Part shown: in pieces, positions 8,220 to 64,000 of the stretch
Numbering within the stretch: the stretch's first letter is position 1
Layout: the number at the start of each line of letters is the position of its first letter
NCBI GenBank assembly: GCA_000004985.1
Contig: GG738917.1
Origin: Naegleria gruberi
Lineage: Eukaryota
Direction: 5' to 3' (one strand)
DNA length: 64,000 nucleotides
The notes under the pieces: generated by a model
What the model was told of the DNA's origin: nothing
The model's input: only the letters and a program-made list of their open reading frames with translations
The model's database searches: none
Position numbers and translations under genes: made by a program

Positions 8220-11200
8220 ATGCGACGAGAGGACTGGTTGGTCCAAGCAACATGCGTTTTGTTCCAATTGTTGGCTACAGTACTATTGTGTAGTACTACT
8301 AACGGCCAAACAATCCAAGACGATCTCTATATTGTCCCAATTGCAAAAATCAATGTTCCAGAATATGGATCAGTATCATTCTATCCACAAGTCTACTACT
8401 TTAATTCAAGCTATTCTTCAAGTTCATTGCAAGTCTCTTACTCGATGGCAGATGGCTCAGCATTGAAAAGTGGCATGACAGTTTTGAATGGTGTATTGAA
8501 CTTTTATTCAAATCCTGCACATGTTGGTCAACTCAGTGTGTTGAGAAATGTATCTTATTATAATAGTGAAAACAAGTTTATTACAATTTCACATGTGACC
8601 ATATTTCAAGTCATTCCAACACCAACACCAAATCAATTATCCTTACTATTTTCAGATGATTTTTTAGGTGGTGATTTATCTAAATGGTATTTATTAGATG
8701 GCACTATGAAACTACAATCAGCTCAACTAAATATTTATCAAAACAATACGAAACTTGTGACTGTTAACAGTTTTGATTTAACTAATCAATTGGGTGTAAC
8801 CTTTACATTCAATTTATTGACCACATGGACAGCTTCTAGAGGAATTCTTATTTATGTGGACAAGTTGAATTATTATGAAATTAACTTGTCAGGTTCTTCT
8901 TTTACTATTACTCGTTGTGTGAATGGAAACCCAACAGTGATATTGCAAAGCACCAAGCTATTACAAGTTCATGCTGCAAATTATTATTCAAGTTATAAGG
9001 TTTATTTACAATATACCAAAGAAGGAATGATAATTACTATTGCTAAAATTGGAATATTGGCAAGTGATTATGTTCTAAATGTAGTTGATAGTTTTACTAA
9101 TATTGATGTATTCAAAAGTGTTAAATTGGGTTTTTATGAAAAAACTGTCGACTCTCCATCTCAATCAAATTTCAAAGTGTTACAATGTAAAGTTTACAAT
9201 GGAAAATTAATGCATTCCAGACAAGGTGTAACTTATCACGTTGATGGTAAAAATGGTAATGATTTGAATGATGGTCTTTCTAGTTCAAGTGCCTTCAAAA
9301 CATTGAATACAGCTCAATACCAATTATTACCTGATGACACTCTATTAATTCATGATTCAATCTATAGAGAAAGCTTTCAAATTAATAGACAAGCATCCGT
9401 TGACCATCCAATTACTATCAAAGCATTTAATCAACCAACCACAACATCCACTTTTACAACAACACCTTACACTCACACAGCTATTCTTGACGGATCGCTT
9501 GTTTTGGATAATTCTAAATTTAAAAAAATTACCAATTCAAACATTTATCAAATTGCACTGAAATTTACACCAGATGTTGTCTATCAAGATAATGTTAAAA
9601 TGAGCTTGGCAATGAAACCACTTCCAAGTAATTTACAAGATGAATATTTTGTTGACAATTACATTCATCCTAAAAACAATTCAATTCAATCATCATCTGA
9701 TAATTCAATGATTTATTTACAATTGGATGACATGTTCAAATATGATCAATTTGGTAGCCAGGCTCCAGATGATTTCTGGGTTGGTGCCATCTTTTATCAA
9801 TTTTACAAGGCAGGTGTCTATGTTATAACACGTAAAATAGTATCATATAATGCTACTACTAATACCATTGGATTGCTTTATAATGACTTGCCTGTTGTAA
9901 CAAGTGATTCGTATGCTATTGCTAATCATATCGGTTGCTTTTCACAAGCTGGCCAATACGTTGTGAATACGAACTTTATTTCAGTTTCATTAAGTACTGA
10001 CCCTACCGTATCTCAAACAATCCTGGAGGTTTCTGCACTGGACAATGGTGCTAAAATTGTTAATGGAATGGAGGGAATTAACCTTCAAGGTTTAATGGTT
10101 AGAAAATATCTAAGTGATGGAATTGTGTGTTCTGGTGGTTGCACAAATTTGGTAATCAGTAATTGCTCTGCCAAATATAATGGTGGATCTGGTATTAGTT
10201 TAAGTTATTCCTCAAATCTACTAGTTGATGGTGGTGAAATGTCACAAAATTTCAACAATGGAGTTAATTTTGGAGGTGCTGTAAAAGATTCCACAGTACA
10301 AAATACCTATACTCACAGAAATATTAATAATGGTATTTGGGTTGGTAATGCAGGAACACCTCTATTCTATTGTGTGAATATTCTATTGAAATCTAATAAG
10401 GTTGGTCCTCAAAATAGTGAAAGACTTCATCCAGATAACATTCAATTGGCCAGTGCTGATAATATTACACTCGAATCGAATATATTAACACAAGATGGTG
10501 ATCAAAATATGTGGATGGATAAGAATGGTCTTGTAATATTTAAGAGAAATATTATCATTGGTGGACCACTTGGTGTTAATAATGCACAGAGTGTTGTAAT
10601 GTTCAACAATGTGTTCTATAATTCTTATTTGAGATTTGCTGTTGCACCAGTTGGTCCATTTGTTGGACTTGATAATATTGCTGATTGGTCTGACATGTTC
10701 AATAGTATTACAGATACCAATTCACAATCTATTGCAAATATTCTTGTATGGTCAAGTATGAATTCACAATTATCGTCTACTATCAAATCCTATTCATCTT
10801 ACAAATCATTAACAACTGCAGATAAGACTGCTATTATTGATCAAATTAACAGTGTTATCAATAATACTTCTTTTATGGCACAATTTAAGGATGTAGTAAT
10901 CCCTTTTTTAGGAAAAGAGCATGTTGTGGCCTATCCATACTGGAATGCTATGACTAAACGAGGATTGATGGATAAATCAACTGGTAAACTCACAAACAGC
11001 AATAATGAAACAATTTACGAAGCTAAAGGTTTAACACGTGCTATTTTGGATGAAGTTTTTGATGGAATTATTTACAAAGGTCCAATTACCTTCTATCCAA
11101 GAATTGTTTCCATTAAGAATAATGCTTTCATTGAATCATTTTTACAATTACCTTCCACAACATACAGCTTACTACCATATTGGGAATCCAATTTCAATTA

Positions 11201-16614: not shown

Positions 16615-16961
16615 TTCTTTTTTTTGAGTTTCAATAAGAAGAAGATTTGCAGCCACTTTTATAATTCGAAACAATTCGAAAGTTTAAAGTTGGAACCGGA
16701 ATGTGGAATTGAAATGATGGTCCATTGTTAAGGGTTTATTAATCGGGTTAACGTTATAGTCGCGCTTACTGCAACTGATAACCAACTCAAGAGCGGAAGA
16801 AACGGTGGCGGAGGTATTGAATATGAAGATCTGTAGTTAACAACAATCAATGGTTATATGACCAAACAGTAGATAATATTGTGATAACTTGACCTCAATC
16901 CTTTGTCTGCATTTCCACCATTTTCAAATTGAAATTTCAATATATTTTATGTTTAAAAAAA

Positions 16962-19900
16962 ATGCATCAAGAAAAGAACTTCACGGATGTGCTCATCTCT
17001 TTACATGATATTGATTCCGAAAGTGATAGTGTGAATTTATCTTGCTCTGAATTATTGATCAGCAAATTTCGGCAAACAATATCGGAAAGACTTAAACTAA
17101 ACGAAAGTATTTATGAGCACATGAAACAACTGATAGAGTTGCATGGTGTGAACAAATGTATTCCTTTCGTTCGTGAAAATCCCTTTCCTGATAATGATTG
17201 CACCCTAGCCTTTTTCAAAATCCTTTCTTACTGTGGTTTATTATTGGAATTTGCATCCGAAAGAATACGAAACGATGAAACACTTGCATTGATTGCTGTA
17301 CAGAATGATGTAGATGCCTTGATGGATGTGAGCATTAATTTGAGAGAAAATAGAGATTTTGCTTTAAAAGTTGTGCAATTAGATATTTCAAATAGTTACA
17401 AAAAGAGTACGATGAAATATTTGAACAAATTCAAAGACGATTATGAAATTGTGTTGAAGGCAGTTCGCCAATGTGGTATATCACTTGCAAATACAGCTAT
17501 AAGATTGAGATATGACAAGCAAATAATTGAAGAAGCTGTCAAAAGTTGTGGAACAGCTCTATCCTATGTTCCAAAAGACTTTATCGATAGAAATTTGGTA
17601 ATGAGTGCAATATCATCAGATGCAAAGGCTCTTCAATACGCCCTAAATTTTAAAAACGATAAGGAAGTAGTATTTGCTGCATTTCAAGTGGGTAAAGATT
17701 CTTTTCATTTTGCTTCGGATGAATTGAAATCAGATCGAGAATTTTGTATGAAATTGGTAAAGTTAAATGGCCATACGATTAGATTTTGTTCAGACGAGTT
17801 GAAAAATGATAAGGAGATGGCTATTATTGCTGTGAAATCAGACCCATATTCATATTATTGCCTGCCTCCAAATATGAAGAATGATAGAGAAATATTGTTA
17901 AAATGTGCCTCTATTGCTCTTTTTGACCTACCCTATGATATAAGTAGCGACAGAGAGTTTATGAATAGTTTACTAATTTCAGGAAAGCAATTATTGAACT
18001 TTTTAGAATATTCGGCATTGACAAGAGATTTTGAATTAGAACTCATTGGAAGCAATTGCAATTATCAATATGGTTTATTTGGAAGAATTAAAGAGGAAGA
18101 AGAACTATTCACAAGAATTGTTAACATAGATCCTTCTGCATTCATGTTTGCAACAAGTGATAATATTAGGAACAATAAGCAAATTGTTATGAATGCACTT
18201 TTTTATGAGGCAGAAATTCTCGGTAATATATCAGAGGAATTGAAAAATGACAGAGAATTGTTTGAGCTAGCCATTCGATTACATGATAATGTGCTTTATT
18301 ATGCATCAATGAATTTGAGAAATGATAAAGATTTAGTAATGATGTCAATCGAATATGATGCCTTTTCCTTTCAATACGCCTCTGAAGAATTGAAAAACGA
18401 CAGACAAGTTGCAGAGCTAGCAATAACGATCAATGGCCTTAATTTCCAATTCGCTTCTGAAGATTTGAGAAATGACAAGGAATTTTGCAAACTGGCGACT
18501 CGTAATTCTTACCATTGTTTAAATGAATATTTAGGTGCTGACATGAAAAGAGAAAGGAATCTTATTTTGGAAAATGTAAAGAAGCATACTTCTTTCATTC
18601 CAGATGAATTCAAAGATGATAAGGAAATAGTTTTTGAATCAGTTTCAGTATATGGTGGAAATATTGAACAAGCATCTTTTGATTTAAGAAATGATGATAG
18701 AGAGTTGATACGAACGGCAGTAAGAAATGGCTGTCCATTAAGCTCCTTAGATAACAGAATTATAGATAGAGACCTAGTCTTCGAGTCAATCCTTTATGGT
18801 AGCGCCTTGTGCATCGTGTCCGTTGTTGAGGAATGGCCAGAAATAGTAGATGAGGAAAAAATCATTCATTTTCAAATTTTGAGAGGATGTTGGGATTGGT
18901 TCAAATATTTCAATCCTCTATTAAGAAATGATAAAGATTTTGTAAGGAAATATGTAAAGATTTGTGGCGACATATTGGAATATGTTTCAGAAGATTTTAA
19001 AAATGATAGAGAAATTGTTAAAGAAGCAGTTAGCAACAGTGCAAATGCATTTAAATACGCGTCAGATACACTGAAGAATGACAGAGAAATTGTGGAAGCA
19101 TTGAAGAATGCAGAAGAATCAGTATATTTCATATCAGGTCTTAAAGACAGAGAGTTAGTATTGCAAGCTGCTGAAAAAGGAGTTATTCTAAACACACTCG
19201 AAGAATTTACGTATGATAGAGAAATTGCCTTAAAAACAGTTTCCAAGGCTGGTTCAAAGTTACTTTACCTATCCTACGATCTAAGAAGTGATAGGGAAAT
19301 TGTATTAGAAGCTGTAAAGAATGACCACTCATCTCTTGAATATTCCATGTATGATTCAAGATATGATAAGGATGTCATCTTGAAAGCAGATCTCCCTCTC
19401 AGCCATGTGGTACCAGCTCTAAGAAATGATAGAGAGCTCGTACTAAAGTTGCTCGAAAAACCCCTAAAAAAGTACAAATATCATTTCGATATTATAGATG
19501 ATACGATTGAGCTAGAGTATTATTCTGGATCACAATTCGTGTATCTCTCAGATGAATTGAAAGAAGAATTCAAATCGAATAAGGAAATTATGTTGAAAGC
19601 CATTAAATTTGGGCCAACAGCAATCAATTATGCCTCCAAGGAGCTTCAAAATGATGAAGAGTTTGTATTGGAAGCTGCTCAAATCAATGGTATGGTACTA
19701 AACCATGTACTACCGAAATTTAAACATAATCGAAATGTTGTAATGAAGGCAGTTCAACAAAATGGTATGTCCCTCTCTCATGCATGCAATGAATTACAAA
19801 ACGACATTGAAATAGTTCAAAACGCTCTCAAATCCCATGTTTGTGCTTTTGAATATGCCGGTTATAAATTGAGAGGCGACAAGGAATTTGTATTGGAAAT

Positions 19901-20213
19901 GACTAGACAAAATTATCATGCTTTTAAGTTTGCCAGTAGTGATTTACAAGGTGATGAAGACATTATTTCACAAGTTATGGAAATTAATATTGAGACACTG
20001 AATTGTGCCTCCTATTCATTGCGGAATAATGTTGACTTCTTGAAGAGGATGAACAAGGATAATAGACTTGTGGAGAGGGCTTCCTTCAATCTACAAAGAT
20101 CCATTAACATGCAAGGATTGTTGGATATTGAAGAAACAGACCCAAAGAAATATGAAAAGCTACTAGATTTTTACATTGACAGGTTAGTTGTGGCCACAGA
20201 GAACTCAAATTGA
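16962..20213 (+). CDS. DUF4116-repeat protein (tandem ~40-aa units of the ELKNDxE-V..AV..NG.AL.YAS type)
   Basis: 1083 aa from ATG 16962 (track start 16929 is TTG). More than 20 repeats, e.g. ASERIRNDETLALIAVQNDVDALMDVS, ASDELKSDREFCMKLVKLNGHTIRFCS, ASEELKNDRQVAELAITINGLNFQFAS, ASKELQNDEEFVLEAAQINGMVLNHV. Confidence 0.7.
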   Translation: MHQEKNFTDVLISLHDIDSESDSVNLSCSELLISKFRQTISERLKLNESIYEHMKQLIELHGVNKCIPFVRENPFPDNDCTLAFFKILSYCGLLLEFASERIRNDETLALIAVQNDVDALMDVSINLRENRDFALKVVQLDISNSYKKSTMKYLNKFKDDYEIVLKAVRQCGISLANTAIRLRYDKQIIEEAVKSCGTALSYVPKDFIDRNLVMSAISSDAKALQYALNFKNDKEVVFAAFQVGKDSFHFASDELKSDREFCMKLVKLNGHTIRFCSDELKNDKEMAIIAVKSDPYSYYCLPPNMKNDREILLKCASIALFDLPYDISSDREFMNSLLISGKQLLNFLEYSALTRDFELELIGSNCNYQYGLFGRIKEEEELFTRIVNIDPSAFMFATSDNIRNNKQIVMNALFYEAEILGNISEELKNDRELFELAIRLHDNVLYYASMNLRNDKDLVMMSIEYDAFSFQYASEELKNDRQVAELAITINGLNFQFASEDLRNDKEFCKLATRNSYHCLNEYLGADMKRERNLILENVKKHTSFIPDEFKDDKEIVFESVSVYGGNIEQASFDLRNDDRELIRTAVRNGCPLSSLDNRIIDRDLVFESILYGSALCIVSVVEEWPEIVDEEKIIHFQILRGCWDWFKYFNPLLRNDKDFVRKYVKICGDILEYVSEDFKNDREIVKEAVSNSANAFKYASDTLKNDREIVEALKNAEESVYFISGLKDRELVLQAAEKGVILNTLEEFTYDREIALKTVSKAGSKLLYLSYDLRSDREIVLEAVKNDHSSLEYSMYDSRYDKDVILKADLPLSHVVPALRNDRELVLKLLEKPLKKYKYHFDIIDDTIELEYYSGSQFVYLSDELKEEFKSNKEIMLKAIKFGPTAINYASKELQNDEEFVLEAAQINGMVLNHVLPKFKHNRNVVMKAVQQNGMSLSHACNELQNDIEIVQNALKSHVCAFEYAGYKLRGDKEFVLEMTRQNYHAFKFASSDLQGDEDIISQVMEINIETLNCASYSLRNNVDFLKRMNKDNRLVERASFNLQRSINMQGLLDIEETDPKKYEKLLDFYIDRLVVATENSN

Positions 20214-50426: not shown

Positions 50427-52103
50427 TTATGGAGAGCTTTGAATACGATTGACAATGGCTGAAACAAGGGCAGAATTATGAACCTCTGCGCCAATACCCA
50501 ATGACTCTCTATCCTTCAAAATGCAACCACTCTTCTTAATACACAAACCAATAGCTGTTTCCAAGATGGTTCCAGTAGATCTCAAAGAATAGCATGGAGC
50601 AACCTTTTGACAACCATAGTAAAAGTATCTGGTAGCACAAGCAGAGAATATTGCGTTACCTCTAATATCTTGTAAACAATCCAATTGACAGGCAACACAT
50701 GGAGTGTTATCAACACCAGCAAAGGAAGCTCTGTCAGGCATTGGATAATCTGATGGACCAGTAACGTGGAATGAGCTAGGAGCAGAAGAAACCAAACCCT
50801 TTGCAGTGGAAGATAAAGAATTCTTAACTTCGTTGGTAGTTTTCTTTTCTCCTTCACTGGCCTTTTCTTTCAATTCCTTTTTAACTTCTGCAATCTTGGC
50901 AAGTGTGAATTCAGCTTTCAAACCATACTTTTTGTTCTTTAAAGTATTGAAAGCTTTCTTATTGAGAGATTTCAATCCTCTTCCCTTACCACCTTTCTTT
51001 CCTCTTCTGCCACCTCTTCTTCCACCTCTTTTACCACCTTTACCTCTTCTTCCACCCTTTCCTTTACCTCTTTTACCACCTTTTCCACCTCTTCTTCCAC
51101 CTTTGCCTCCTTTCTTTCCACCTTTACCTTTTCCACCTTTTCCTTTACCTCCTTTACCTTTTCCACCTTTTCCACCTTTTCCACCTTTTCCTTTACCTCC
51201 TTTTCCTTTTCCACCTTTACCTCCTTTTCCACCTTTGCCTCCCTTTCTTCCAGAATTTCCACCTTTCTTTCCACCATTTGATTTTCCTCCTCTTTTACCT
51301 CCTTTGGCTCCAACAGAATTTCCACCACCTCTTTTACCACCTTTTCCTCCTCTACCTTGTTGTTTTGATGTGGAACGAGCTGTACGACCACCACTGAGAG
51401 CTCCTCTCTTTCCAGATGGTTTACCACCAGTAGCACCAGCACCAGCACGTGAAGCAGATTTTCCACCTCTTTTACCACCAACACCACGTGAAGCAGATTT
51501 TCCAACAGATCCAGAAGTAGCACCAGTACCAGTACCAGCACCACCACGTGAAGCTCCTTTTCCACCTCCTCTTTTACCACCTCCTCCAGAAGAAGTAGCA
51601 CCACCACGAGATACTGAACCACTTCCTCTTCCAACAGAACTTCTTCCACTACTACCACCACTACTAGCACCTCCTCTTGAACCAGCTGATGATGATGAAG
51701 ATGATCTTCCACCACCACTACTACTAGCTCCTCCACCTCTAGAACCTCCTCCAGAAGATGATCCACCACCTCCTCTGGAACCTCCTCCAGAAGATGCTCC
51801 ACCACCTCGTGATCCACCTCCACCACCAGAAGATGATCCACCACCACCTCTTGAACCTCCACCGCCTCCACCACGTCCTAAAGTGTTGATGTTATCCTCA
51901 ATTAATTCTACATCTTCATCTTCATCAGAAGACAATGTAGCAGCAGCTACTACAACGGTACGTTTTTTTCCTGATGAACTGGTCTTGGCAGGTCCACGAC
52001 ATTGACTTGCTGTGGCATTGACACTTTCACATAGTAAAAAACATTGTATGCTGATAATTGCCAGAATAGCGAAAAGTAAAAGACGAATATTCCACTGTGG
52101 CAT
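50427..52103 (-). CDS. Secreted Gly/Arg/Ser/Lys-rich protein with conserved C-terminal 8-Cys domain (family member 1)
   Basis: ATG 52103; signal peptide MPQWNIRLLLFAILAIISIQCFLLCESVNA; TASQCRGP; dibasic SGKKR; acidic patch DEDEDVELIED; ~250 aa of GGGGSRGGG / GGKGGKGKGGKG repeats. C-terminus: ...FHVTGPSDYPMPDRASFAGVDNTPCVACQLDCLQDIRGNAIFSACATRYFYYGCQKVAPCYSLRSTGTILETAIGLCIKKSGCILKDRESLGIGAEVHNSALVSAIVNRIQSSP, alignable residue-for-residue with members 2 and 3. Confidence 0.75.
   Translation of the reverse strand: MPQWNIRLLLFAILAIISIQCFLLCESVNATASQCRGPAKTSSSGKKRTVVVAAATLSSDEDEDVELIEDNINTLGRGGGGGGSRGGGGSSSGGGGGSRGGGASSGGGSRGGGGSSSGGGSRGGGASSSGGGRSSSSSSAGSRGGASSGGSSGRSSVGRGSGSVSRGGATSSGGGGKRGGGKGASRGGAGTGTGATSGSVGKSASRGVGGKRGGKSASRAGAGATGGKPSGKRGALSGGRTARSTSKQQGRGGKGGKRGGGNSVGAKGGKRGGKSNGGKKGGNSGRKGGKGGKGGKGGKGKGGKGKGGKGGKGGKGKGGKGKGGKGKGGKKGGKGGRRGGKGGKRGKGKGGRRGKGGKRGGRRGGRRGKKGGKGRGLKSLNKKAFNTLKNKKYGLKAEFTLAKIAEVKKELKEKASEGEKKTTNEVKNSLSSTAKGLVSSAPSSFHVTGPSDYPMPDRASFAGVDNTPCVACQLDCLQDIRGNAIFSACATRYFYYGCQKVAPCYSLRSTGTILETAIGLCIKKSGCILKDRESLGIGAEVHNSALVSAIVNRIQSSP
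50990..51330. repeat. Degenerate tandem codon repeats (GGT/GGA/AAA/AGA units) encoding KGGKGKGG / RGGKGG
   Basis: Visible as cctttacctttt / ccaccttttcc periodicity on the + strand. Source of shadow ORFs 50806..52005(+) and 50972..51874(-). Confidence 0.6.
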
Positions 52104-52459: not shown

Positions 52460-53557
52460 TTAAATTCTTCTTTCAATGGCTGAGGTAATATATTGCATTG
52501 CATTTGAAATTGTTCTATTCACTTGTTCTTCATTTCCAATCGATGGATTCACCTCTACCAAATCCATTCCAACAAATTTCGAATATTTTTGACATTTTCT
52601 ACAAATCTTTAATCCATCCTGATGTGAAATTCCATTCTCCACAGCTGTTCCTGTACTTGGTGTAAATTCTGGATCAATACCATCCACGTCAAAACTCAAA
52701 AATAATGGAAATTCTGATTGATTTAAATTCAAGTGTGAAAAACATTCTTCCAAACAATATTCGATTTCTAATTGATGAATTTCACTTGCAGTAAAGTGTT
52801 GAATTTTGAACTTTTTCAAGATTTCTTGTTCGAAAGAATCGACATCTCGAAGACCCAAGTAAGCCAACCGAGAAGAAACTAGGAGATTGATTTCTTCATT
52901 CATCCATTCGAAACCAATGTGTGAATTTCTTTCCTCTCCCAAAATTGATTGACCACAGAGGAAAGCAAGTGGCATACCATGCATATTCTTACTCATTGAA
53001 TCTGATTGGTGTCAAATAGTTTATCGACAAGTGACAGAGTTGAGAGTTTAAATAAAAACAAGAAACAAACCTTTTGGAGTGTTAATGTCTGCATGAGCAT
53101 CCACCCACAGTACTCTTAAATCTGGATATTCCATTAACATGGCATAAATTGAGCCAATTGCCACAGAATGATCTCCACCAATGTTTACTATAAATGGTTT
53201 CTTATTGGATTGAACTTGGAAAATAGTGTTGATTGTTTCGGCAATTTGTTGATTGAAGGAGCCAACTCTTCTCTGATTGAGACAAATCTCCATATCATCA
53301 GCCTCTTTGTCTACCAATGTTGAAGGACTTTTCGAATAATCTGGACTATTACTATTCGAATCTCTCTTTTCATTAATTTTAATAACTGGCAAGTGATTTA
53401 ACAATTGTGTTTGTAGTAAATGATAAGCTCCCAACTCAACACCCTCTCTTCTCTGACCCAAGCCACACCAACTTTCCAGAATTACAACATTCTCATTGTT
53501 TTCCTCTTGTTGATTTCTCATCATGTTATCAATGATATTCATTAGCTGTGGATGCAT
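52460..53557 (-). CDS. Arginase-family (ureohydrolase: arginase/agmatinase-type) enzyme, two exons
   Basis: Exon 1 53557..53071 (ATG 53557; ...IVNIGGDHSVAIGSI...[14 protein letters not shown]); 69-nt intron 53070..53002 (GTTTGTTTCTTG...CACCAATCAG); exon 2 53001..52463 in phase 1 (D-SMSKNMHGMPLAFLCGQ...SFDVDGIDP...GMDLVEVNP). All binuclear-metal ligand motifs (GGDHS, DAHAD, SxDVDxxDP) are present. Compare arginase [25 protein letters not shown]. Confidence 0.85.
53002..53070 (-). other. Spliceosomal intron (69 nt) with GTTTGT donor
   Basis: Splitting restores the arginase DAHADINTP...HGMPLAFL block; phase-1 junction. Confidence 0.8.
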
Positions 53558-57437: not shown

Positions 57438-58256
57438 ATGACTCAAGGAGAAGAAACATCTGGTTTGAGATTTTTCTCTAGAAACAAAAGCAAAGCTTGG
57501 GCAGAAAAGTTCTTCCTTGCCTATGGCCCTATTTGGATGCTTTACTTTGTCTTTCTGATTTATTATGAAATTTATGAAGGTGCCTCGAAACTTGGTTGGA
57601 CAATGTTTGGTGTCATAATGGCAACTCCTTGTGTTATGTATCCATTGATGTTTCCAGGAAAGGCAGACAGCAAGTTACCAATCACTGAAAGATATTGGTT
57701 TAAGGCTAATCTTTGGATTTTATTTTTCAATTTTGTTGGAAATTATTTCTGGACTCACTACTTTTTCAATCTACTTGGAGCTAGATATACTTTGGAGGCA
57801 TATAGTATCAATGATATTCCTTATTTGATGTTTTTCTGCACCCAAGCTTATTTCACTTTTTATTTCACATTTAGTAATGTTCTATTGAGAATGATTTATA
57901 CTGGAATGAAAGAATCAAGAGGGAGAACTGTCTTTGTTGTATTGTTCCTTTGTGCATTTTGCTATTTCACAGCCTATATGGAAACACTCACAATCCAACA
58001 TTTCAAATATTACACACACAAAAATAGGGATGCAATGTTAAAGTACGGTTCAATTTTCTATGCTCTATACTTTATTGTTGGATTTCCAATGTATTTCAGA
58101 GTGGATGAAGAGGAGAAGGAGAAGAAATTTTCCACATGGAAAGTTGTCACTGAGAGCTTGGCATCATGCATGTTAGTGACTATATTGCTTGACTTTTGGA
58201 GATTGATTATTGGAGGAATCATTCCAGATATTCCTCAATGCAATTGGAAAAATTAA
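57438..58256 (+). CDS. CPI1: Cycloeucalenol cycloisomerase (CPI1; opens the 9beta,19-cyclopropane ring in cycloartenol-route sterol synthesis)
   Basis: 272 aa, multi-TM. KANLWILFFNFVGNYFWTHYFFNLLGARYTLEAY matches, as I recall it, the plant CPI1 block ANLWIIVFSYVGNYFWTHYFFKVLGASYTF; AYMETLTIQHFKYY / AYLETIAIANFPYY and YALYFIVGFPMYFRVDE / YAIYFIVSFPMFFRMDE also align. Confidence 0.8.
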   Translation: MTQGEETSGLRFFSRNKSKAWAEKFFLAYGPIWMLYFVFLIYYEIYEGASKLGWTMFGVIMATPCVMYPLMFPGKADSKLPITERYWFKANLWILFFNFVGNYFWTHYFFNLLGARYTLEAYSINDIPYLMFFCTQAYFTFYFTFSNVLLRMIYTGMKESRGRTVFVVLFLCAFCYFTAYMETLTIQHFKYYTHKNRDAMLKYGSIFYALYFIVGFPMYFRVDEEEKEKKFSTWKVVTESLASCMLVTILLDFWRLIIGGIIPDIPQCNWKN

Positions 58257-58262
58257 ATAAAT

Positions 58263-59063
58263 TTACAAGTACTTTCTATAATCCTCCTTAGTTCTGTGTA
58301 CCAGCTTTTCCTCAGCTTTACAACTTTTACAAGTCAGAATACACTGTCGTGTCTGGACTGGATCAAACGAAACTGAAATCATGAAATGATCACAATCCAG
58401 TTGTCTCCTTTTTTCATTATCAATTTCTGATCGATGTTCATTATCCATCAAGCCATAGCCCTGCTCAGCTGCTTGAAGAGCTTTCGTTCCCTTTCGTGTG
58501 CTTCTCTTAAAATTATCATATTCTTCCTGGAAAGCATAAATGTACGAAGTGTAAGAGCGGAATTGTTCTCTAAGTTTCATATTTCTATTTGTAAATTTAA
58601 TTCTCCTGTTGAGTAAGGCAAAGTAAAGTTTCTGAAAAACCAAATGTTGTTCTGGTTTCATATCAGATGGAATAAACTTTTTTTGAAATCCAAAAATGTT
58701 TCGTGGATCTTTTAACTGAAACATGTTTTCAATTTCTTTTTCCAAAGTTTTGCCCTCCTTTATGAATAAGGCAGCATGATCCCTTTCTTCCTCTGTGGAA
58801 ATTATTTTACCAAATGTTCTTTCCAATAGATATTTCTGGAAAGGAAGAGAATAAATAATGTTTCTAATTTTTCTATCAATAAGGACATAGACTGTGTAGA
58901 GATCTTTGATTTCAAAATAATTTAGTATCACTATCCATATTTCTTCCAAATGAATTTTGGTAAATATTGTTTCTGTTAAAACTTTAGGTTTCGGTTTCTT
59001 GTTAGATTTCTTAGGGATGGTATTCAACAAGTAGTCTTCGTCTAACAATGCAAATGAAGACAT
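58263..59063 (-). CDS. Hypothetical protein with N-terminal F-box-like motif and C-terminal Cys cluster
   Basis: 266 aa, ATG 59063. LEEIWIVILNYFEIKDLYTVYVLIDRKIRN is F-box-like. C-terminal CDHF...CILTCKSC. Confidence 0.4.
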   Translation of the reverse strand: MSSFALLDEDYLLNTIPKKSNKKPKPKVLTETIFTKIHLEEIWIVILNYFEIKDLYTVYVLIDRKIRNIIYSLPFQKYLLERTFGKIISTEEERDHAALFIKEGKTLEKEIENMFQLKDPRNIFGFQKKFIPSDMKPEQHLVFQKLYFALLNRRIKFTNRNMKLREQFRSYTSYIYAFQEEYDNFKRSTRKGTKALQAAEQGYGLMDNEHRSEIDNEKRRQLDCDHFMISVSFDPVQTRQCILTCKSCKAEEKLVHRTKEDYRKYL

Positions 59064-59164
59064 TTTTTGATTATCCTAATTTTAAATCTGATCTTGTAAC
59101 TGTGATGATCATCCTCAAAGTGTGAAGTTTCAATTTCAAACAGTCAACTTGCAAAAAGAGCTGT

Positions 59165-59851
59165 TTATTCCACATTACAAAAAGATGTTCCAACAAAAAC
59201 AGCATCAGTATTGGAGAAAGGTTCAAGTGTTAGCAATTCTCTTGGTTTGAAATACTTTTTAACATCGGTGATTGTTTCTTGGGTCCATTCTACAGATTGT
59301 TGAACGTATCCTTCAGGTTTGTGTAGTACAATATAAAAATCTCCACCTTCTTTAAGGAATAATTTGGCATTCTCTGTCATTGCTTTGTGAGTACCATTTG
59401 TCATTATGATGTCCACTTTTTCAGGAATTTCTGATTGATATTCAGATGGATTATTTGCACTTCCACTAATTGCAATAAGATTATTTCTTTGTGATTGCAA
59501 TTTTGCAACAATTTGATAGTCAGATTCAGAACTATTAACACAATAAACTTTTCCACTAGTAGAAATAATATCCGAAATAAAAGATAAGGTAATTGGTGCA
59601 ACATCAATACACAATATCTTTCCTCCTGGTTTGACACTCATAAAGTGCAAACCAGACACAATGCTGGCAGCCAGGCGACAATCCACTCTCCATTTTCTAT
59701 ATTCAGTTCCGTTAATTGTAACGATTTCATCAAAATCAAAAACTTCAGGAATATTTGGTGCATAGTTTACAGTACACAATACATGGAATGGCTCTTCAGG
59801 ACTTGTTGTGATGAACATATTTGGAAATCTGTGTGGTTCAATTGTTGACAT
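59165..59851 (-). CDS. Divergent fibrillarin-like methyltransferase-fold protein (no GAR domain; SAM-binding motif degenerate)
   Basis: Track ORF 59165..60076 overlaps the upstream BTB gene; internal ATG at 59851 (MSTIEPHRFPNMF...). Aligns along the fibrillarin catalytic domain: IEPHRF (VEPHRH), YRKWRVDCRLAASIVSGL (YRAWNPFRSKLAAAILGG), KPGGKILCIDVAPITLSFISDIISTSGKVYCVNSSE ([36 protein letters not shown]), ELLTLEPFSNTDAVFVG (EQLTLEPYERDHAVVVG). Confidence 0.6.
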   Translation of the reverse strand: MSTIEPHRFPNMFITTSPEEPFHVLCTVNYAPNIPEVFDFDEIVTINGTEYRKWRVDCRLAASIVSGLHFMSVKPGGKILCIDVAPITLSFISDIISTSGKVYCVNSSESDYQIVAKLQSQRNNLIAISGSANNPSEYQSEIPEKVDIIMTNGTHKAMTENAKLFLKEGGDFYIVLHKPEGYVQQSVEWTQETITDVKKYFKPRELLTLEPFSNTDAVFVGTSFCNVE

Positions 59852-59903
59852 TTTTTTTTGATGATAAATCAACGGAAGGATTGGTTGTTTTGCAATGTTA
59901 CCT

Positions 59904-61367
59904 TCATTGTAAAATGCAATTATTTGTTGAGGATGACAGCAAAGATTGCACTCTCTTGAAGTTTGTGAAATGTTGAAGGTGTTTCTTGTAGGATTCGTAG
60001 TTAGCTTTCTCCTTTTCATACTTTTCAAGTTCTGTGTAGTAATAGGAAGGAGGCCACACATTTGTTTTGATTTCAATCAAATCTTCTTCCTCTAGAGAAT
60101 TCTGAATGAGTGGTAAATAGTTTGCATAATTGTTTGTCATATAGTAGAGGCATAGTTTTCGTAATTGTTTGGCATTGTAAAGTTTAGAAAACAAGTAGAG
60201 AGTTACAATTTCTTCACTGCCATTTTTTGCATTCTCTTCATTGATAGATTTCGATATGAAAACTTCACATTGAGTTTCAAGATGATTCATGTTATATAGG
60301 TGAGCTATGGCTAAAATTGTACACACAGAATTGGAATCAAATACAGGTTGTCTGTGATAGACATGTTGTAGAAAGGCCTCGCATCCTTTGATTTGATCTT
60401 CAATGGAATTAGTTAATTCTTGACCTTCAAATAGATTAATTTCAGTCATGGAAGAAGAGCTCTCAATAAAGCCATCTGTGAACATAACCTTAAAGACATC
60501 ACTGCACACAAATAGAAAACATTTGTTGGCGTATCTGTAGTTATCTCCAATTTTGAATTGAACATCAGCATACTCTTTCTTTCCAAAGAAGTTTGTGTTT
60601 AGTTTCGAATAGAAATCCTGCATAATATTTTCAGATCCCTCATTAAACAAATCACACTTATCGTAAAAGTTTTTCAGAGATGGTGCGTCGAATAAGAGTG
60701 ATAATTCATCAATTCTTCCTTTCAGGAATTTCTTCTCTAGATTAATAGTTTTCCCACAGTAAGTCAATTCTAGTATGGTTATAAATTCTTGTGTTGATAT
60801 AGATTCTACTAGCTCAAGTTTGAAAATTTTCTCCTCATAAAGTATGGTCTTAAATAAAGTGGAGTACTCAGAATAGAGCTCCGGTATTTCTTCTATCTTA
60901 TCGTTTGCAGCAAGATATTTCAATTTAGTGAATAAATTTTCCAATACTTTCGAGCAAGAACAGCTCAGAATAATACTATGAGCATATAGATTTTCTATTT
61001 CATTATTCTCATAATTCATTCCAATAATATGTACATCAGAAAATGCAGAATTATTGAGTAGTGATTGATTATTCTCAAATGAAAATCCAATTCTTTCTAA
61101 CGGTTGAGGTTTTTCTCTTTTCTCTGGTAATCGAGGACATTTCCTCACAGGAGGTGGAAGACAAGTGGAAACAAGGAGTTTCAAAGTGGATACTTTTGTT
61201 TCCTGATACGCTGCATTTATCACTCGATGCATGCACAAAGTTACATTAATATCCAAATCCGAACTTATGAGATAACTTGCACAAACATTATCCTCATTCT
61301 TTTTCACCACATTCATAATATCCTCCTCAATTATTGATCTTTGCAAATCAAAATTTTCATTCATCAT
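59904..61367 (-). CDS. Double BTB/POZ (plus BACK-like) domain protein
   Basis: 487 aa, ATG 61367. BTB 1 around FSDVHIIGMNYENNEIENLYAHSIILSCSCSKVLENLF. BTB 2 plus BACK around YADVQFKIGDNYRYANKCFLFVCSDVFKVMF...LAIAHLYNMNHLETQCEVFI...LRKLCLYYMTNN. Confidence 0.7.
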   Translation of the reverse strand: MMNENFDLQRSIIEEDIMNVVKKNEDNVCASYLISSDLDINVTLCMHRVINAAYQETKVSTLKLLVSTCLPPPVRKCPRLPEKREKPQPLERIGFSFENNQSLLNNSAFSDVHIIGMNYENNEIENLYAHSIILSCSCSKVLENLFTKLKYLAANDKIEEIPELYSEYSTLFKTILYEEKIFKLELVESISTQEFITILELTYCGKTINLEKKFLKGRIDELSLLFDAPSLKNFYDKCDLFNEGSENIMQDFYSKLNTNFFGKKEYADVQFKIGDNYRYANKCFLFVCSDVFKVMFTDGFIESSSSMTEINLFEGQELTNSIEDQIKGCEAFLQHVYHRQPVFDSNSVCTILAIAHLYNMNHLETQCEVFISKSINEENAKNGSEEIVTLYLFSKLYNAKQLRKLCLYYMTNNYANYLPLIQNSLEEEDLIEIKTNVWPPSYYYTELEKYEKEKANYESYKKHLQHFTNFKRVQSLLSSSTNNCILQ

Positions 61368-61959
61368 TAAATCACATTTTGTACAAACTAATACTATTTT
61401 CTATAAATTTGTGGATTCAAATATTGCAAAAATACCTACACATGAACTATCAGATTTTAAACAATTGGGAATCCAAATTTTATCCACATTCTCCAATGTT
61501 TTCGGTTGATCAATTGCAAATCTTTCAATTCATGAATAATTGCAACTTGACGTTAAACTTACAATATTAAAATTACATCACAATCAAATTTATCATCAAT
61601 TGTACCAATCTATTCAAATTTAATTTCAAATTTAATTCAAAATATTAAATCACACCTACATGAAAACTAAGGAGATACGATTGATCACCAGATCTGAAAC
61701 TTGTTACTCCTGTACTAATTTCATCATTATTCCTAATTAATTTGTTCCGATCGTCAATACTACCAACAGAATGCTTACCCTCTTTTATTGGTTACACATC
61801 GTAGGAGAGATTGTTTTCCAACGCCTTCATCTCCTAAAATTTTGACTTTCAGAATAAGTGATGCCATTTTTTATAAATTATAAATTAAATAAATTTTAAC
61901 GGCAAGTATTGATCCAAACTTTACAAAAAAAAATGACACGAAGAGGATGTCGTCTCACT

Positions 61960-62905: not shown

Positions 62906-64000
62906 TTATCCAGCCCTTATAGCTCCAACCATGGTTGATAAGATCTTTTGAGCTGATGCCCTCTTACTCAAATTCAGTTTCTTTCTATCAACAGTACATC
63001 TATTCTTTGTAATACACATTGCAATAGCAACTTGGATGATATTATCTGAGGCAGTTCTTTCATAACATGGAGCTTTTTGTTGACATCCATAATAATAATA
63101 TTGCTGTCCGCATGTGGAGAAGATAGATGAGAATCCACCAAATGGTTGAGTACAATCAATCTTACAAGCAACACAAGTATTACGTTCAGAACCAGTGAAT
63201 AATGATCTTTCTCCTTGATCATCACTTGAAGGACCAGTCATATCAAAAAAGCTTGGATTTTGAGCTGCAATTTGCTTGGCAAGAGTATCAATTGCATTAT
63301 ATGTGATGTGTGTATCCTTTCCTCCATTGCCATTTGCCACAGCAGTTGGTACAGGTTTTACAACAACTGTTGGTGGAGCTACAACAGCAGCAACGGTTAC
63401 CTTTTTAACATTGTTAACCAATGGATCTCTGGTTACCTTGGTAGTTTTGGCTTTAGCCTTACTCTTTGATTTACTCTTTGATTTACTCTTACTCTTGGAC
63501 TTTCCTTTAGATTTTCCTTTAGATTTTCCTTTAGATTTACCTTTAGACTTTCCTTTAGATTTACCCTTTGAAGACTTTCCTTTGGATTTACCTTTGGATT
63601 TTCCAGAAGATTTACCCTTAGATTTACCAGATGACTTTCCTCTTGAACCCTTGCTGCCACCTTTGGAGCCACCTTTACTGCCTCTAGAACCACCTCTGGA
63701 TCCACCTTTACTGCCTCTTGAGCCACCTTTGCTTCCTCTGCTTCCACCTCTAGAACCTCCACTTCTGCTTCCTCTGGATCCTCCTCTTGAACCTCCACTT
63801 CTAGAACCACCTCTTGAGCCACCTCTGCCTCCTCCTCCACGGCCACCACCACGGCCTCCTCCACCTCTGCCTCCACCACCACGACCACCTCCACCTCCTC
63901 TACCTCCAAGAGTGGTTGCTGCATGTGTTGCTCTTTCATAATTTTCCAAATCTTCCTCATCCAAATCGTGTCCAAGAACGAGTGTAGTTCTGGTTTTACT
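62906..64000 (-). CDS. Secreted Gly/Arg/Ser/Lys-rich protein with conserved C-terminal 8-Cys domain (family member 3), 5'-partial
   Basis: Track ORF 62906..63964 begins on TTG; the frame stays open to position 64000 (SKTRTTLVLGHDLDEEDLENYERATHAATTLGGRGGGGGRGGGG...), so the signal-peptide end lies outside the window. (GGSRGGSR)n, (KGGSRGS)n, (SKGKSKGK)n, then C-terminus ...FFDMTGPSSDDQGERSLFTGSERNTCVACKIDCTQPFGGFSSIFSTCGQQYYYYGCQQKAPCYERTASDNIIQVAIAMCITKNRCTVDRKKLNLSKRASAQKILSTMVGAIRAG. Confidence 0.7.
   Translation of the reverse strand, partial: SKTRTTLVLGHDLDEEDLENYERATHAATTLGGRGGGGGRGGGGRGGGGRGGGRGGGGRGGSRGGSRSGGSRGGSRGSRSGGSRGGSRGSKGGSRGSKGGSRGGSRGSKGGSKGGSKGSRGKSSGKSKGKSSGKSKGKSKGKSSKGKSKGKSKGKSKGKSKGKSKGKSKSKSKSKSKSKSKAKAKTTKVTRDPLVNNVKKVTVAAVVAPPTVVVKPVPTAVANGNGGKDTHITYNAIDTLAKQIAAQNPSFFDMTGPSSDDQGERSLFTGSERNTCVACKIDCTQPFGGFSSIFSTCGQQYYYYGCQQKAPCYERTASDNIIQVAIAMCITKNRCTVDRKKLNLSKRASAQKILSTMVGAIRAG
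63440..63660. repeat. Coding 15-nt tandem repeats (cctttagattttcctttagatt...) encoding SKGKSKGK
   Basis: Direct reading of the + strand. Source of shadow ORFs 63276..63941(+) and 63433..63975(-). Confidence 0.6.

Follow-up and report, generated by a model that had tools for sequence, protein, structure and literature searches.

The window analysed here is a 64,000-nucleotide stretch of Naegleria gruberi DNA (GenBank assembly GCA_000004985.1, contig GG738917.1), which is AT-rich, with about 33% guanine plus cytosine (GC), and dense in coding sequence. A preliminary description had placed a fibrillarin-like open reading frame (ORF) at positions 59165-59851, and an intact minus-strand ORF of 228 codons was located at exactly those positions. 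The probability of 228 codons without a stop at the local base composition is approximately 3e-8, which excludes a chance origin of the ORF. We refer to its product as NgFL (NAEGRDRAFT_74739 / XP_002670301.1 / D2W056). The N. gruberi entry XP_002670301.1, labelled ‘predicted protein’, agrees with the C-terminal 158 residues of NgFL at 100% identity. The corresponding public model, NAEGRDRAFT_74739, is 158 residues long and its first residue is Met71 of NgFL; it leaves out residues 1-70 (59641-59851), that is, the entire N-terminal beta domain and Pfam Fibrillarin positions 1-70. With 70 residues missing, the annotation needs to be lengthened to 228 amino acids. The full-length protein has been called independently on an environmental contig (ENA ERZ929261, k127_332349), which aligns with window positions 57646-61594 at 99.3% identity over 3.95 kb (22 substitutions, 3 gaps) and has the same gene order. 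We note that this contig implies the presence of a close strain of the N. gruberi group in the sample, and that four genes thereby gain a second allele.

The features of the locus are collected in Table 1. The spacing to the upstream BTB gene, put at about 50 bp in the preliminary description and called unusually tight, is 52 nt. With intragenic junctions removed, the window has 14 true head-to-tail spacers with a median of about 220 nt, and this one is indeed the smallest of them. So short a spacer raises the possibility that NgFL is co-transcribed with the BTB gene.

Table 1 NgFL, its altered sites (NgFL residues, then human FBL residues) and nearby features of the window
Feature	Position	Strand	Basis or remark
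NgFL, complete coding sequence, 228 aa + TAA	59165..59851	minus	ATG-to-TAA ORF, translation
D57-C58-R59 for R141-S142-K143 (‘NPFRSKLAA’); P139 deleted	59675..59683	minus	alignment to human FBL
Degenerate motif I, ILCIDVAP-ITLSF	59579..59617	minus	alignment, column statistics
N106-S107 for E191-F192	59531..59536	minus	alignment to human FBL
S131-A132 for D216-A217 (‘EDA’/‘GDA’, motif III Asp)	59456..59461	minus	alignment
T151-N152-G153-T154-H155 for A235-D236-V237-A238-Q239, then 4-residue deletion P240-T243	59387..59401	minus	alignment
H177 for Lys of ‘IKA’, second tetrad Lys	59321..59323	minus	alignment; end of 1nt2_A alignment: query 177 = chain 162
52-nt spacer, BTB TGA to NgFL ATG, A9 run at end	59852..59903	minus	two-strain differences: 1 substitution and one 1-nt indel
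BTB/POZ-domain protein, 487 aa; upstream same-strand neighbour, separate gene in a different frame	59904..61367	minus	Pfam BTB, E 3e-16
266-aa protein, downstream neighbour without Pfam match, 101 nt past NgFL stop	58263..59063	minus	
RGG-rich ORF, open at window end, own stop at 62906	62906-64000 and beyond	minus	no Pfam match

Fibrillarin fold and cofactor site

Residues 4-222 of NgFL match positions 1-224 of the 227 in the Pfam Fibrillarin family (PF01269), with an E value of 6.2e-32 and 111 bits (cut-off 27). NgFL also matches all fibrillarins of solved structure, with E values of, for example, 8e-25 (Pyrococcus furiosus) and 3e-21 (human FBL). The sequence blocks said in the preliminary description to run along the whole fold were all found in NgFL by alignment, and the Pfam match extends from end to end: IEPHRF stands at the VEPHRH block, EYRKWRVD at the EYRAWNPF block and TLEPFSNTDAVFVG at the canonical TLEPYERDHAVVVG block. 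An AlphaFold2 model of NgFL (predicted local distance difference test, pLDDT, 89.7; predicted template modelling score, pTM, 0.88), for which the input was an alignment of canonical fibrillarins, indicates compatibility with the fold. The model comprises an N-terminal beta domain and a seven-stranded Rossmann-type methyltransferase domain, and can be superposed on solved fibrillarins. Foldseek searches with this model gave template modelling (TM) scores of 0.92 to P. furiosus 2NNW_B and 0.89-0.90 to FBL in the human small-subunit processome. Ranks 1-37 are all fibrillarins (TM 0.74-0.92), and the next fold class scores 0.46-0.55.

NgFL has no Gly/Arg-rich (GAR) N-terminus. Its Met lies three residues ahead of the first Pfam position, so that the protein begins at the start of the domain; the absence of a GAR domain had been correctly described. 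The domain is also acidic, with an isoelectric point (pI) of 5.1 and 19 Lys plus Arg residues, compared with a family median pI of 8.5 and about 30 such residues in canonical domains. The net positive charge of the family is gone from NgFL, and the pI argues against the usual RNA-facing surface. NgFL belongs to the fibrillarin family as a divergent protein that has no GAR domain.

An alignment of 261 fibrillarin-family relatives was used to define 52 columns that are at least 80% conserved (human FBL numbering is used throughout). NgFL retains 30 of these columns; among the 22 lost are all the cofactor and catalytic motifs. Six core positions are all replaced (K143R, G167D, E191N, D216S, D236N and the Lys of IKA by His), which is the case in only 3 of 262 family members, NgFL among them. 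Motif I had been described as reading IDVAPITL in place of the S-adenosylmethionine (SAM)-binding LGAASGTT; aligned to human FBL, NgFL reads IDVAP-IT. The motif is free of glycine, with Y165-L166-G167 replaced by C-I-D, S170 by Pro, T172 by Ile and H176 by Phe, and with G171 deleted. The columns of G167 and G171 are 97% and 90% Gly in the relatives, and LGAASGTT is not recovered in NgFL.

The remainder of the cofactor site is altered as well (Table 1). In structures of human FBL the carboxylate of E191 hydrogen bonds to fragment inhibitors, one of them a mimic of the adenosine of SAM; F192 stacks on the ring of an adenosine-mimicking compound (compound 2), the backbone of A217 contacts the same compound and the loop D236-Q242 lines the cofactor site (PMC8779173). 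The aromatic residue beside the beta2 acid has been coupled to Nop5 (PMC1865073). The D216 column, 89% Asp among the relatives, holds Ser (S131) in NgFL, and the AQPDQ (beta4-alpha5) loop is shortened by four residues. Fibrillarins possess a KDKE catalytic tetrad in which the second Lys is shifted (PMC3488215). The first Lys (human K143, Archaeoglobus fulgidus K42) is Arg (R59) in NgFL, at a site where the columns are 92% Ser and 90% Lys. The conserved catalytic Asp (D133 in A. fulgidus) is N152 in NgFL; we take D133 to be equivalent to human D236 from the motif alignment and the A. fulgidus sequence, consistent with the coordinates of the 1nt2_A alignment. This Asp has been described as absolutely conserved and needed for activity (PMC1865073). 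Taken with the second Lys, the K-D-K catalytic positions read R-N-H in NgFL.

Inspection of the SAM pocket, suggested in the preliminary description together with structure prediction, found its residues replaced throughout within the predicted fibrillarin fold. It very probably follows from these replacements that canonical SAM binding and 2′-O-methyltransferase chemistry have been lost. The protein had been considered possibly inactive on account of motif I; because six core positions are replaced and the beta4-alpha5 loop is shortened, catalytic inactivity would be its expected state.

NgFL might nevertheless still be a methyltransferase, or a small-molecule binder, with a pocket remodelled for SAM or for another ligand or substrate. 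The Rossmann core is predicted to be intact, the former pocket is lined by polar residues (N106, S131, N152 and H155) to which a ligand could in principle be hydrogen bonded, and the N. lovaniensis relative discussed below looks catalytically competent. However, motif I is not merely glycine-free but places Asp where the nucleotide-binding turn needs Gly, aromatic stacking on the adenine-mimicking ligand is gone, the required and absolutely conserved Asp is Asn, both tetrad lysines are replaced and four residues of the pocket loop are deleted. We consider a surviving activity of this kind very improbable.

Relatives and lineage

A HMMER scan that covered 1.84 billion (1.84e9) cluster representatives gave NgFL alone below an E value of 1e-30. 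The next match, and thereby the closest relative among these representatives, is C9374_003610 of N. lovaniensis (XP_044555740.1; E 8e-26, 37% identity). It too is GAR-less, and like NgFL it has Cys at the S142 position and the motifs ‘NAKLFLKE.GDF’ and ‘LT.EPF.N..AV..G’. It differs from NgFL in a 95-residue extension at the N-terminus, in which a HipN domain is recognised (25 bits, cut-off 23), and in the single intron of its gene; it also retains the motif I glycines, the beta2 acid, GDA, the motif IV Asp and both lysines. Because these cofactor and catalytic residues are retained, C9374_003610 may be active. The N. lovaniensis locus (PYSW02000001.1; positions 10001-11083 of the stretch compared) thus encodes HipN (Hsp70-interacting protein N-terminal) fused to a GAR-less and seemingly catalytically intact fibrillarin domain, and we know of no description of a HipN-fibrillarin architecture. 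A profile search for further family members gave no new Naegleria sequences.

A second N. gruberi protein, NAEGRDRAFT_65440 (XP_002679336.1, D2V9H2; P0054 in our set), is encoded on another scaffold (782 kb). It is 30% identical to NgFL over 148 residues (E 3e-20), and NgFL is its best match among the approximately 300 fibrillarin-family sequences compared. Its motif I is degenerate in the same manner as that of NgFL (IMCVEVLPVEVSYCSEIVESSGKVY vs ILCIDVAPITLSFISDIISTSGKVY), the two proteins having in common the motif ‘I[LM]C[IV][DE]V.P...S[FY].S[DE]I..[ST]SGKVY’, and it is likewise acidic. It differs from NgFL in an unrelated 85-residue N-terminus and a degenerate C-terminal third, such that only Pfam positions 34-177 are matched. 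NAEGRDRAFT_65440 is the more degenerate of the two, with a recognisable domain in its central part only, and is annotated ‘predicted protein’. In a neighbour-joining (NJ) tree built from Kimura distances the two proteins are sisters in 48% of bootstraps, and the deeper branches are without resolution. Because the unusual motif I is common to two proteins that are only 30% identical, the degenerate state appears to be old.

Other fibrillarin-like proteins that are GAR-less and partly or fully degenerate were found in Blattamonas (KAK2962380), Drosophila obscura (XP_022211675), a chytrid (as a GST fusion) and Pyxidicula. Further divergent copies include Arabidopsis AtFib3, a group of protist and metagenome proteins (P0099, P0121, P0018, P0115 and P0078) and sequences on Logan/ENA contigs. 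Like NgFL these are extra copies of the family, often acidic and often with Cys at S142; none of AtFib3, the Blattamonas and D. obscura proteins and like copies has a described function. AtFib3 is the lowest-expressed of the Arabidopsis fibrillarin copies (PMC5674935). Cys occupies the S142 column in 7/7 sequences with at least five core changes and in 9/255 others (Fisher p 7e-10, relatedness ignored).

It is conceivable, if unlikely, that NgFL belongs to an old and scattered class of acidic, GAR-less ‘Cys-type’ dead fibrillarins that several protist lineages have kept as non-catalytic subunits. Candidate members are NgFL, NAEGRDRAFT_65440 and the protist and metagenome proteins P0099, P0121, P0018, P0115 and P0078. 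[quoted passage not shown] Were this so, they would tune rRNA methylation or processing much as ‘prozymes’ regulate their active paralogues. The best matches of the other degenerate copies are canonical eukaryotic fibrillarins rather than each other, and a common origin of the Cys-type copies is for this reason not demonstrated.

The profile scores of the two N. gruberi proteins raise the question of their source. NgFL scores 109 bits with an archaeal fibrillarin profile and 80.5 with a eukaryotic one, and NAEGRDRAFT_65440 scores 57 and 42; control divergent eukaryotic paralogues score equally or higher with the eukaryotic profile. After the N. lovaniensis protein the best pairwise matches of NgFL are to Thermococcales, and this group provides the best non-Naegleria matches of NgFL and NAEGRDRAFT_65440 alike. 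Together with the missing GAR domain and archaeal-like local motifs (‘SG.A’, ‘PSEY’), these scores would fit an origin of the N. gruberi fibrillarin-like genes by horizontal transfer of a GAR-less fibrillarin of archaeal type, and not by duplication of the eukaryotic gene. The closest relative, C9374_003610, is however clearly of eukaryotic type, with best eukaryotic matches of 141-174 bits and a best archaeal match of 114 bits. The archaeal profile was built from a more diverse set and penalises a long-branch sequence more mildly, K/E/I-rich composition is common to Naegleria and Thermococcales proteins, and the GC content of NgFL is native, on a par with that of the neighbouring genes. The phylogeny proposed in the preliminary description gives a partial answer, in that the NJ tree puts NgFL on the eukaryotic side but the placement is without support. 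We consider horizontal transfer improbable. Because C9374_003610 is eukaryotic-type, the archaeal profile more permissive and the GC content native, the archaeal preference is probably an effect of long branches and composition.

A giant-virus or horizontally acquired island was also considered and rejected. The window is N. gruberi nuclear DNA and contains ordinary eukaryotic genes (such as Atg6, Vps39, Timeless, arginase and an ABC transporter), the GC content of NgFL is native, and no relative of NgFL was found on viral contigs.

Canonical fibrillarin and the upstream region

Fibrillarin is generally essential, and a sole copy lacking the catalytic residues would be incompatible with that role. 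The preliminary description had named, as a finding that would overturn the paralogue assignment, an upstream spliced exon encoding a GAR domain in a genome with no other fibrillarin gene; NgFL would then be the sole, fast-evolving N. gruberi orthologue. A canonical gene did not turn up in word-indexed searches, and an RGG-rich coding stretch does exist some 3-4 kb upstream on the same strand; a six-frame scan for G/R-rich peptides placed it near 63.9 kb. The stretch belongs, however, to a separate ORF, which continues for about 300 codons to its own stop at 62906, and the whole BTB gene lies between that ORF and NgFL. Every GT-AG join from the BTB frame deletes the IEPHRF strand, and the Met of NgFL coincides with Pfam domain position 1. 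Moreover, N. gruberi has at least one further fibrillarin-like gene. A NOP1-type nucleolar antigen is recognised in Naegleria (PMC3321029), and a fibrillarin orthologue, NdTy_078960, is listed for N. fowleri (PMC11761994). That NgFL is the only fibrillarin of N. gruberi thus strikes us as improbable in the extreme. The N. fowleri orthologue, the NOP1-type antigen, essentiality and the presence of more than one fibrillarin-like gene together point to a canonical fibrillarin elsewhere in the N. gruberi genome. The status of NgFL as a paralogue is supported indirectly, by NAEGRDRAFT_65440, the N. lovaniensis relative, the N. fowleri orthologue and the NOP1-type antigen. Two candidate contigs for the canonical N. 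gruberi gene, P0005 and P0286, were rejected as not from Naegleria (the P0286 contig has 52% GC).

The region upstream of NgFL was searched by tblastn with the N-terminus of the N. lovaniensis protein and by the six-frame G/R scan; no GAR or HipN coding sequence adjoins NgFL. The candidate missed GAR or HipN exon was accordingly dropped, the separate RGG-rich gene being the only return. A 1-nt indel between the strains lies in the A-run 8 nt upstream of the NgFL ATG, and the stretch before the ATG is therefore non-coding. Since introns account for gaps of about 50 nt elsewhere in the window, a fusion of the BTB and fibrillarin reading frames by a short intron was considered; it was provisionally rejected because 8/8 frame-compatible GT-AG joins delete the IEPHRF strand and have poor donor sites.

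The RGG-rich ORF has no relation to NgFL and is the one place in the window where a GAR-like sequence is encoded. Low-complexity repeats in this ORF pass from (G)nR to SRGG and SKGG and then to SKGK/SK; the C-terminal region after them, about 150 residues long, is rich in Cys. Several other features of the window deserve mention. The arginase-family gene at 52460-53557 (minus) consists of two ORFs (Pfam 14-127 and 131-275) separated by a gap of about 51 nt at 52996/53048 that resembles a short GT...AG intron; similar short junctions occur in an Hsp70-like gene (12689/12707) and possibly in a Timeless-domain gene (48701/48731). The convergent genes at 57438-58256 (+) and 58263-59063 (-) have stops only 6 nt apart (19-30 nt in other convergent pairs), which requires their 3′ ends to overlap or to have a termination region in common. 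A 1094-residue protein encoded at 16929-20213 (+) contains about 20 tandem DUF4116 repeats (Pfam E 9e-177). At positions 50427-52103 the GC content has a local peak (0.42 vs about 0.33), GC skew is strongly negative, and both strands contain long ORFs that overlap in several frames; one of these, a 558-residue minus-strand ORF without a Pfam match, may be a compositionally biased or repetitive gene.

A probable non-catalytic paralogue and its counterparts

Considering the fold, the cofactor site and the relatives together, we think it probable that NgFL is a Naegleria-lineage fibrillarin paralogue that has become a non-catalytic pseudoenzyme. The complete two-domain fold is kept; the GAR domain, the motif I glycine loop, the ribose-binding acid, the adenine-stacking aromatic residue and the motif III Asp are missing. 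Such a protein would not bind SAM in the canonical way and would not methylate RNA 2′-OH groups, methylation presumably being carried out by a canonical fibrillarin encoded elsewhere in the genome. NgFL could then, speculatively, serve as a subunit for binding or scaffolding without catalysis, most likely by the docking of its fold surfaces on the N-terminal domain of Nop56/Nop58-type partners; the contact between fibrillarin and Nop56/58 is reported to depend largely on shape and main-chain interactions. NgFL might in this way occupy or regulate a fibrillarin site without methylating, or it might have a wholly different partner.

The main alternative is that NgFL is a decaying relic of a duplicated fibrillarin gene, which is drifting towards a pseudogene and has no present role. 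In neither the window nor the 99.3%-identical contig is the ORF broken by a stop or a frameshift; the four differences between the two strains are all substitutions. The ratio of nonsynonymous to synonymous differences is 3:1 for NgFL, 0:5 for its downstream neighbour and 4:2 for the BTB gene; divergence of NgFL from relatives beyond the second strain is saturated for an estimate of the ratio of the two rates (dN/dS). A relic would account for the loss of every catalytic and cofactor residue, for three nonsynonymous differences to one synonymous, for the annotators’ truncated model, for the lack of a detected N. fowleri orthologue and of synteny in N. lovaniensis, and for spacers of 52 and 101 nt, which leave little space for a promoter of its own. 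On the other hand, 228 codons remain open in a 33% GC genome in two strains, despite at most 37% identity to any other fibrillarin. In addition, 30/52 conserved core columns are kept in a confidently predicted fold, and the unusual motif I recurs in the 30% identical paralogue NAEGRDRAFT_65440, as would be expected of an old degenerate state with unbroken ORFs. We therefore regard decay without function as a possibility to be taken seriously, but a distinctly less likely one. The ORF has stayed intact through deep divergence and the degenerate motif I recurs in NAEGRDRAFT_65440; selection on the fold itself is therefore probable.

Several observations weigh against a maintained pseudoenzyme. 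The 3:1 ratio is what neutral drift would give, although with n=4 this is weak evidence. C9374_003610 keeps K, D, K, the motif I glycines and GDA, and the dead state is for that reason not ancestral to the whole Naegleria group; it could be recent decay. The N. lovaniensis locus has no neighbour gene in common with the window within 10 kb on either side, and orthology based on synteny was dropped. Word-indexed searches gave no N. fowleri orthologue of NgFL, which does not prove its absence, and they did not list a canonical N. gruberi fibrillarin either, no similarity search of eukaryotic genomes having been made. The locus is mentioned in no paper found by our literature search, which also gave no expression or protein evidence for NgFL, and the truncation of the public gene model counts in the same direction. 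The structural model, given its input, is no independent proof of the fold, and the proposed binding to a Nop56/Nop58-type partner is speculative.

As an enzyme, fibrillarin is regarded as essential and nearly invariant, and redundancy is the usual assumption about additional copies. The literature searched does not describe a copy in which the fold is retained without catalytic and cofactor residues, GAR domain or positive charge; NgFL is such a copy, with a sister in the same genome. If expressed, NgFL would be a natural separation-of-function allele and would reveal what the fibrillarin fold does other than methylation, possibly snoRNP scaffolding or competition for Nop56/58. A further instance of regulation by a pseudoenzyme in Discoba is also conceivable. 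We note too that dead copies may inflate fibrillarin counts in comparative surveys of ribosome biogenesis.

Canonical fibrillarins (yeast Nop1, human FBL/FBLL1) share with NgFL the Pfam family, the two-domain fold and approximately 30% identity over the methyltransferase module, including the blocks EPHRF, EYR.W, SDI..G.G.VY, R.NI, VD.I, NA..FLK.GG.F and LTLEP. NgFL departs from Nop1/FBL in having no GAR domain, in the replacement of motifs I to IV and K-D-K, in the deletion in the AQPDQ loop and in its acidic domain. The archaeal FlpA of Pyrococcus/Thermococcus (2NNW, 4BY9, 1PRY) is closer in architecture, with about 227 residues and no N-terminal extension, and its structures are the top-scoring solved matches of NgFL (E 8e-25; TM 0.92). 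FlpA nevertheless has every residue for SAM binding and catalysis and functions together with Nop5, L7Ae and guide small RNA (sRNA). NgFL has none of these residues, and its gene lies in a eukaryotic nuclear genome and is native in composition. In concept NgFL resembles METTL14, DNMT3L and the trypanosomatid ‘prozymes’, inactive paralogues in which the fold is kept and serves protein–protein contacts. These are dead-paralogue partners of enzymes, and the comparison with NgFL is one of analogy only.

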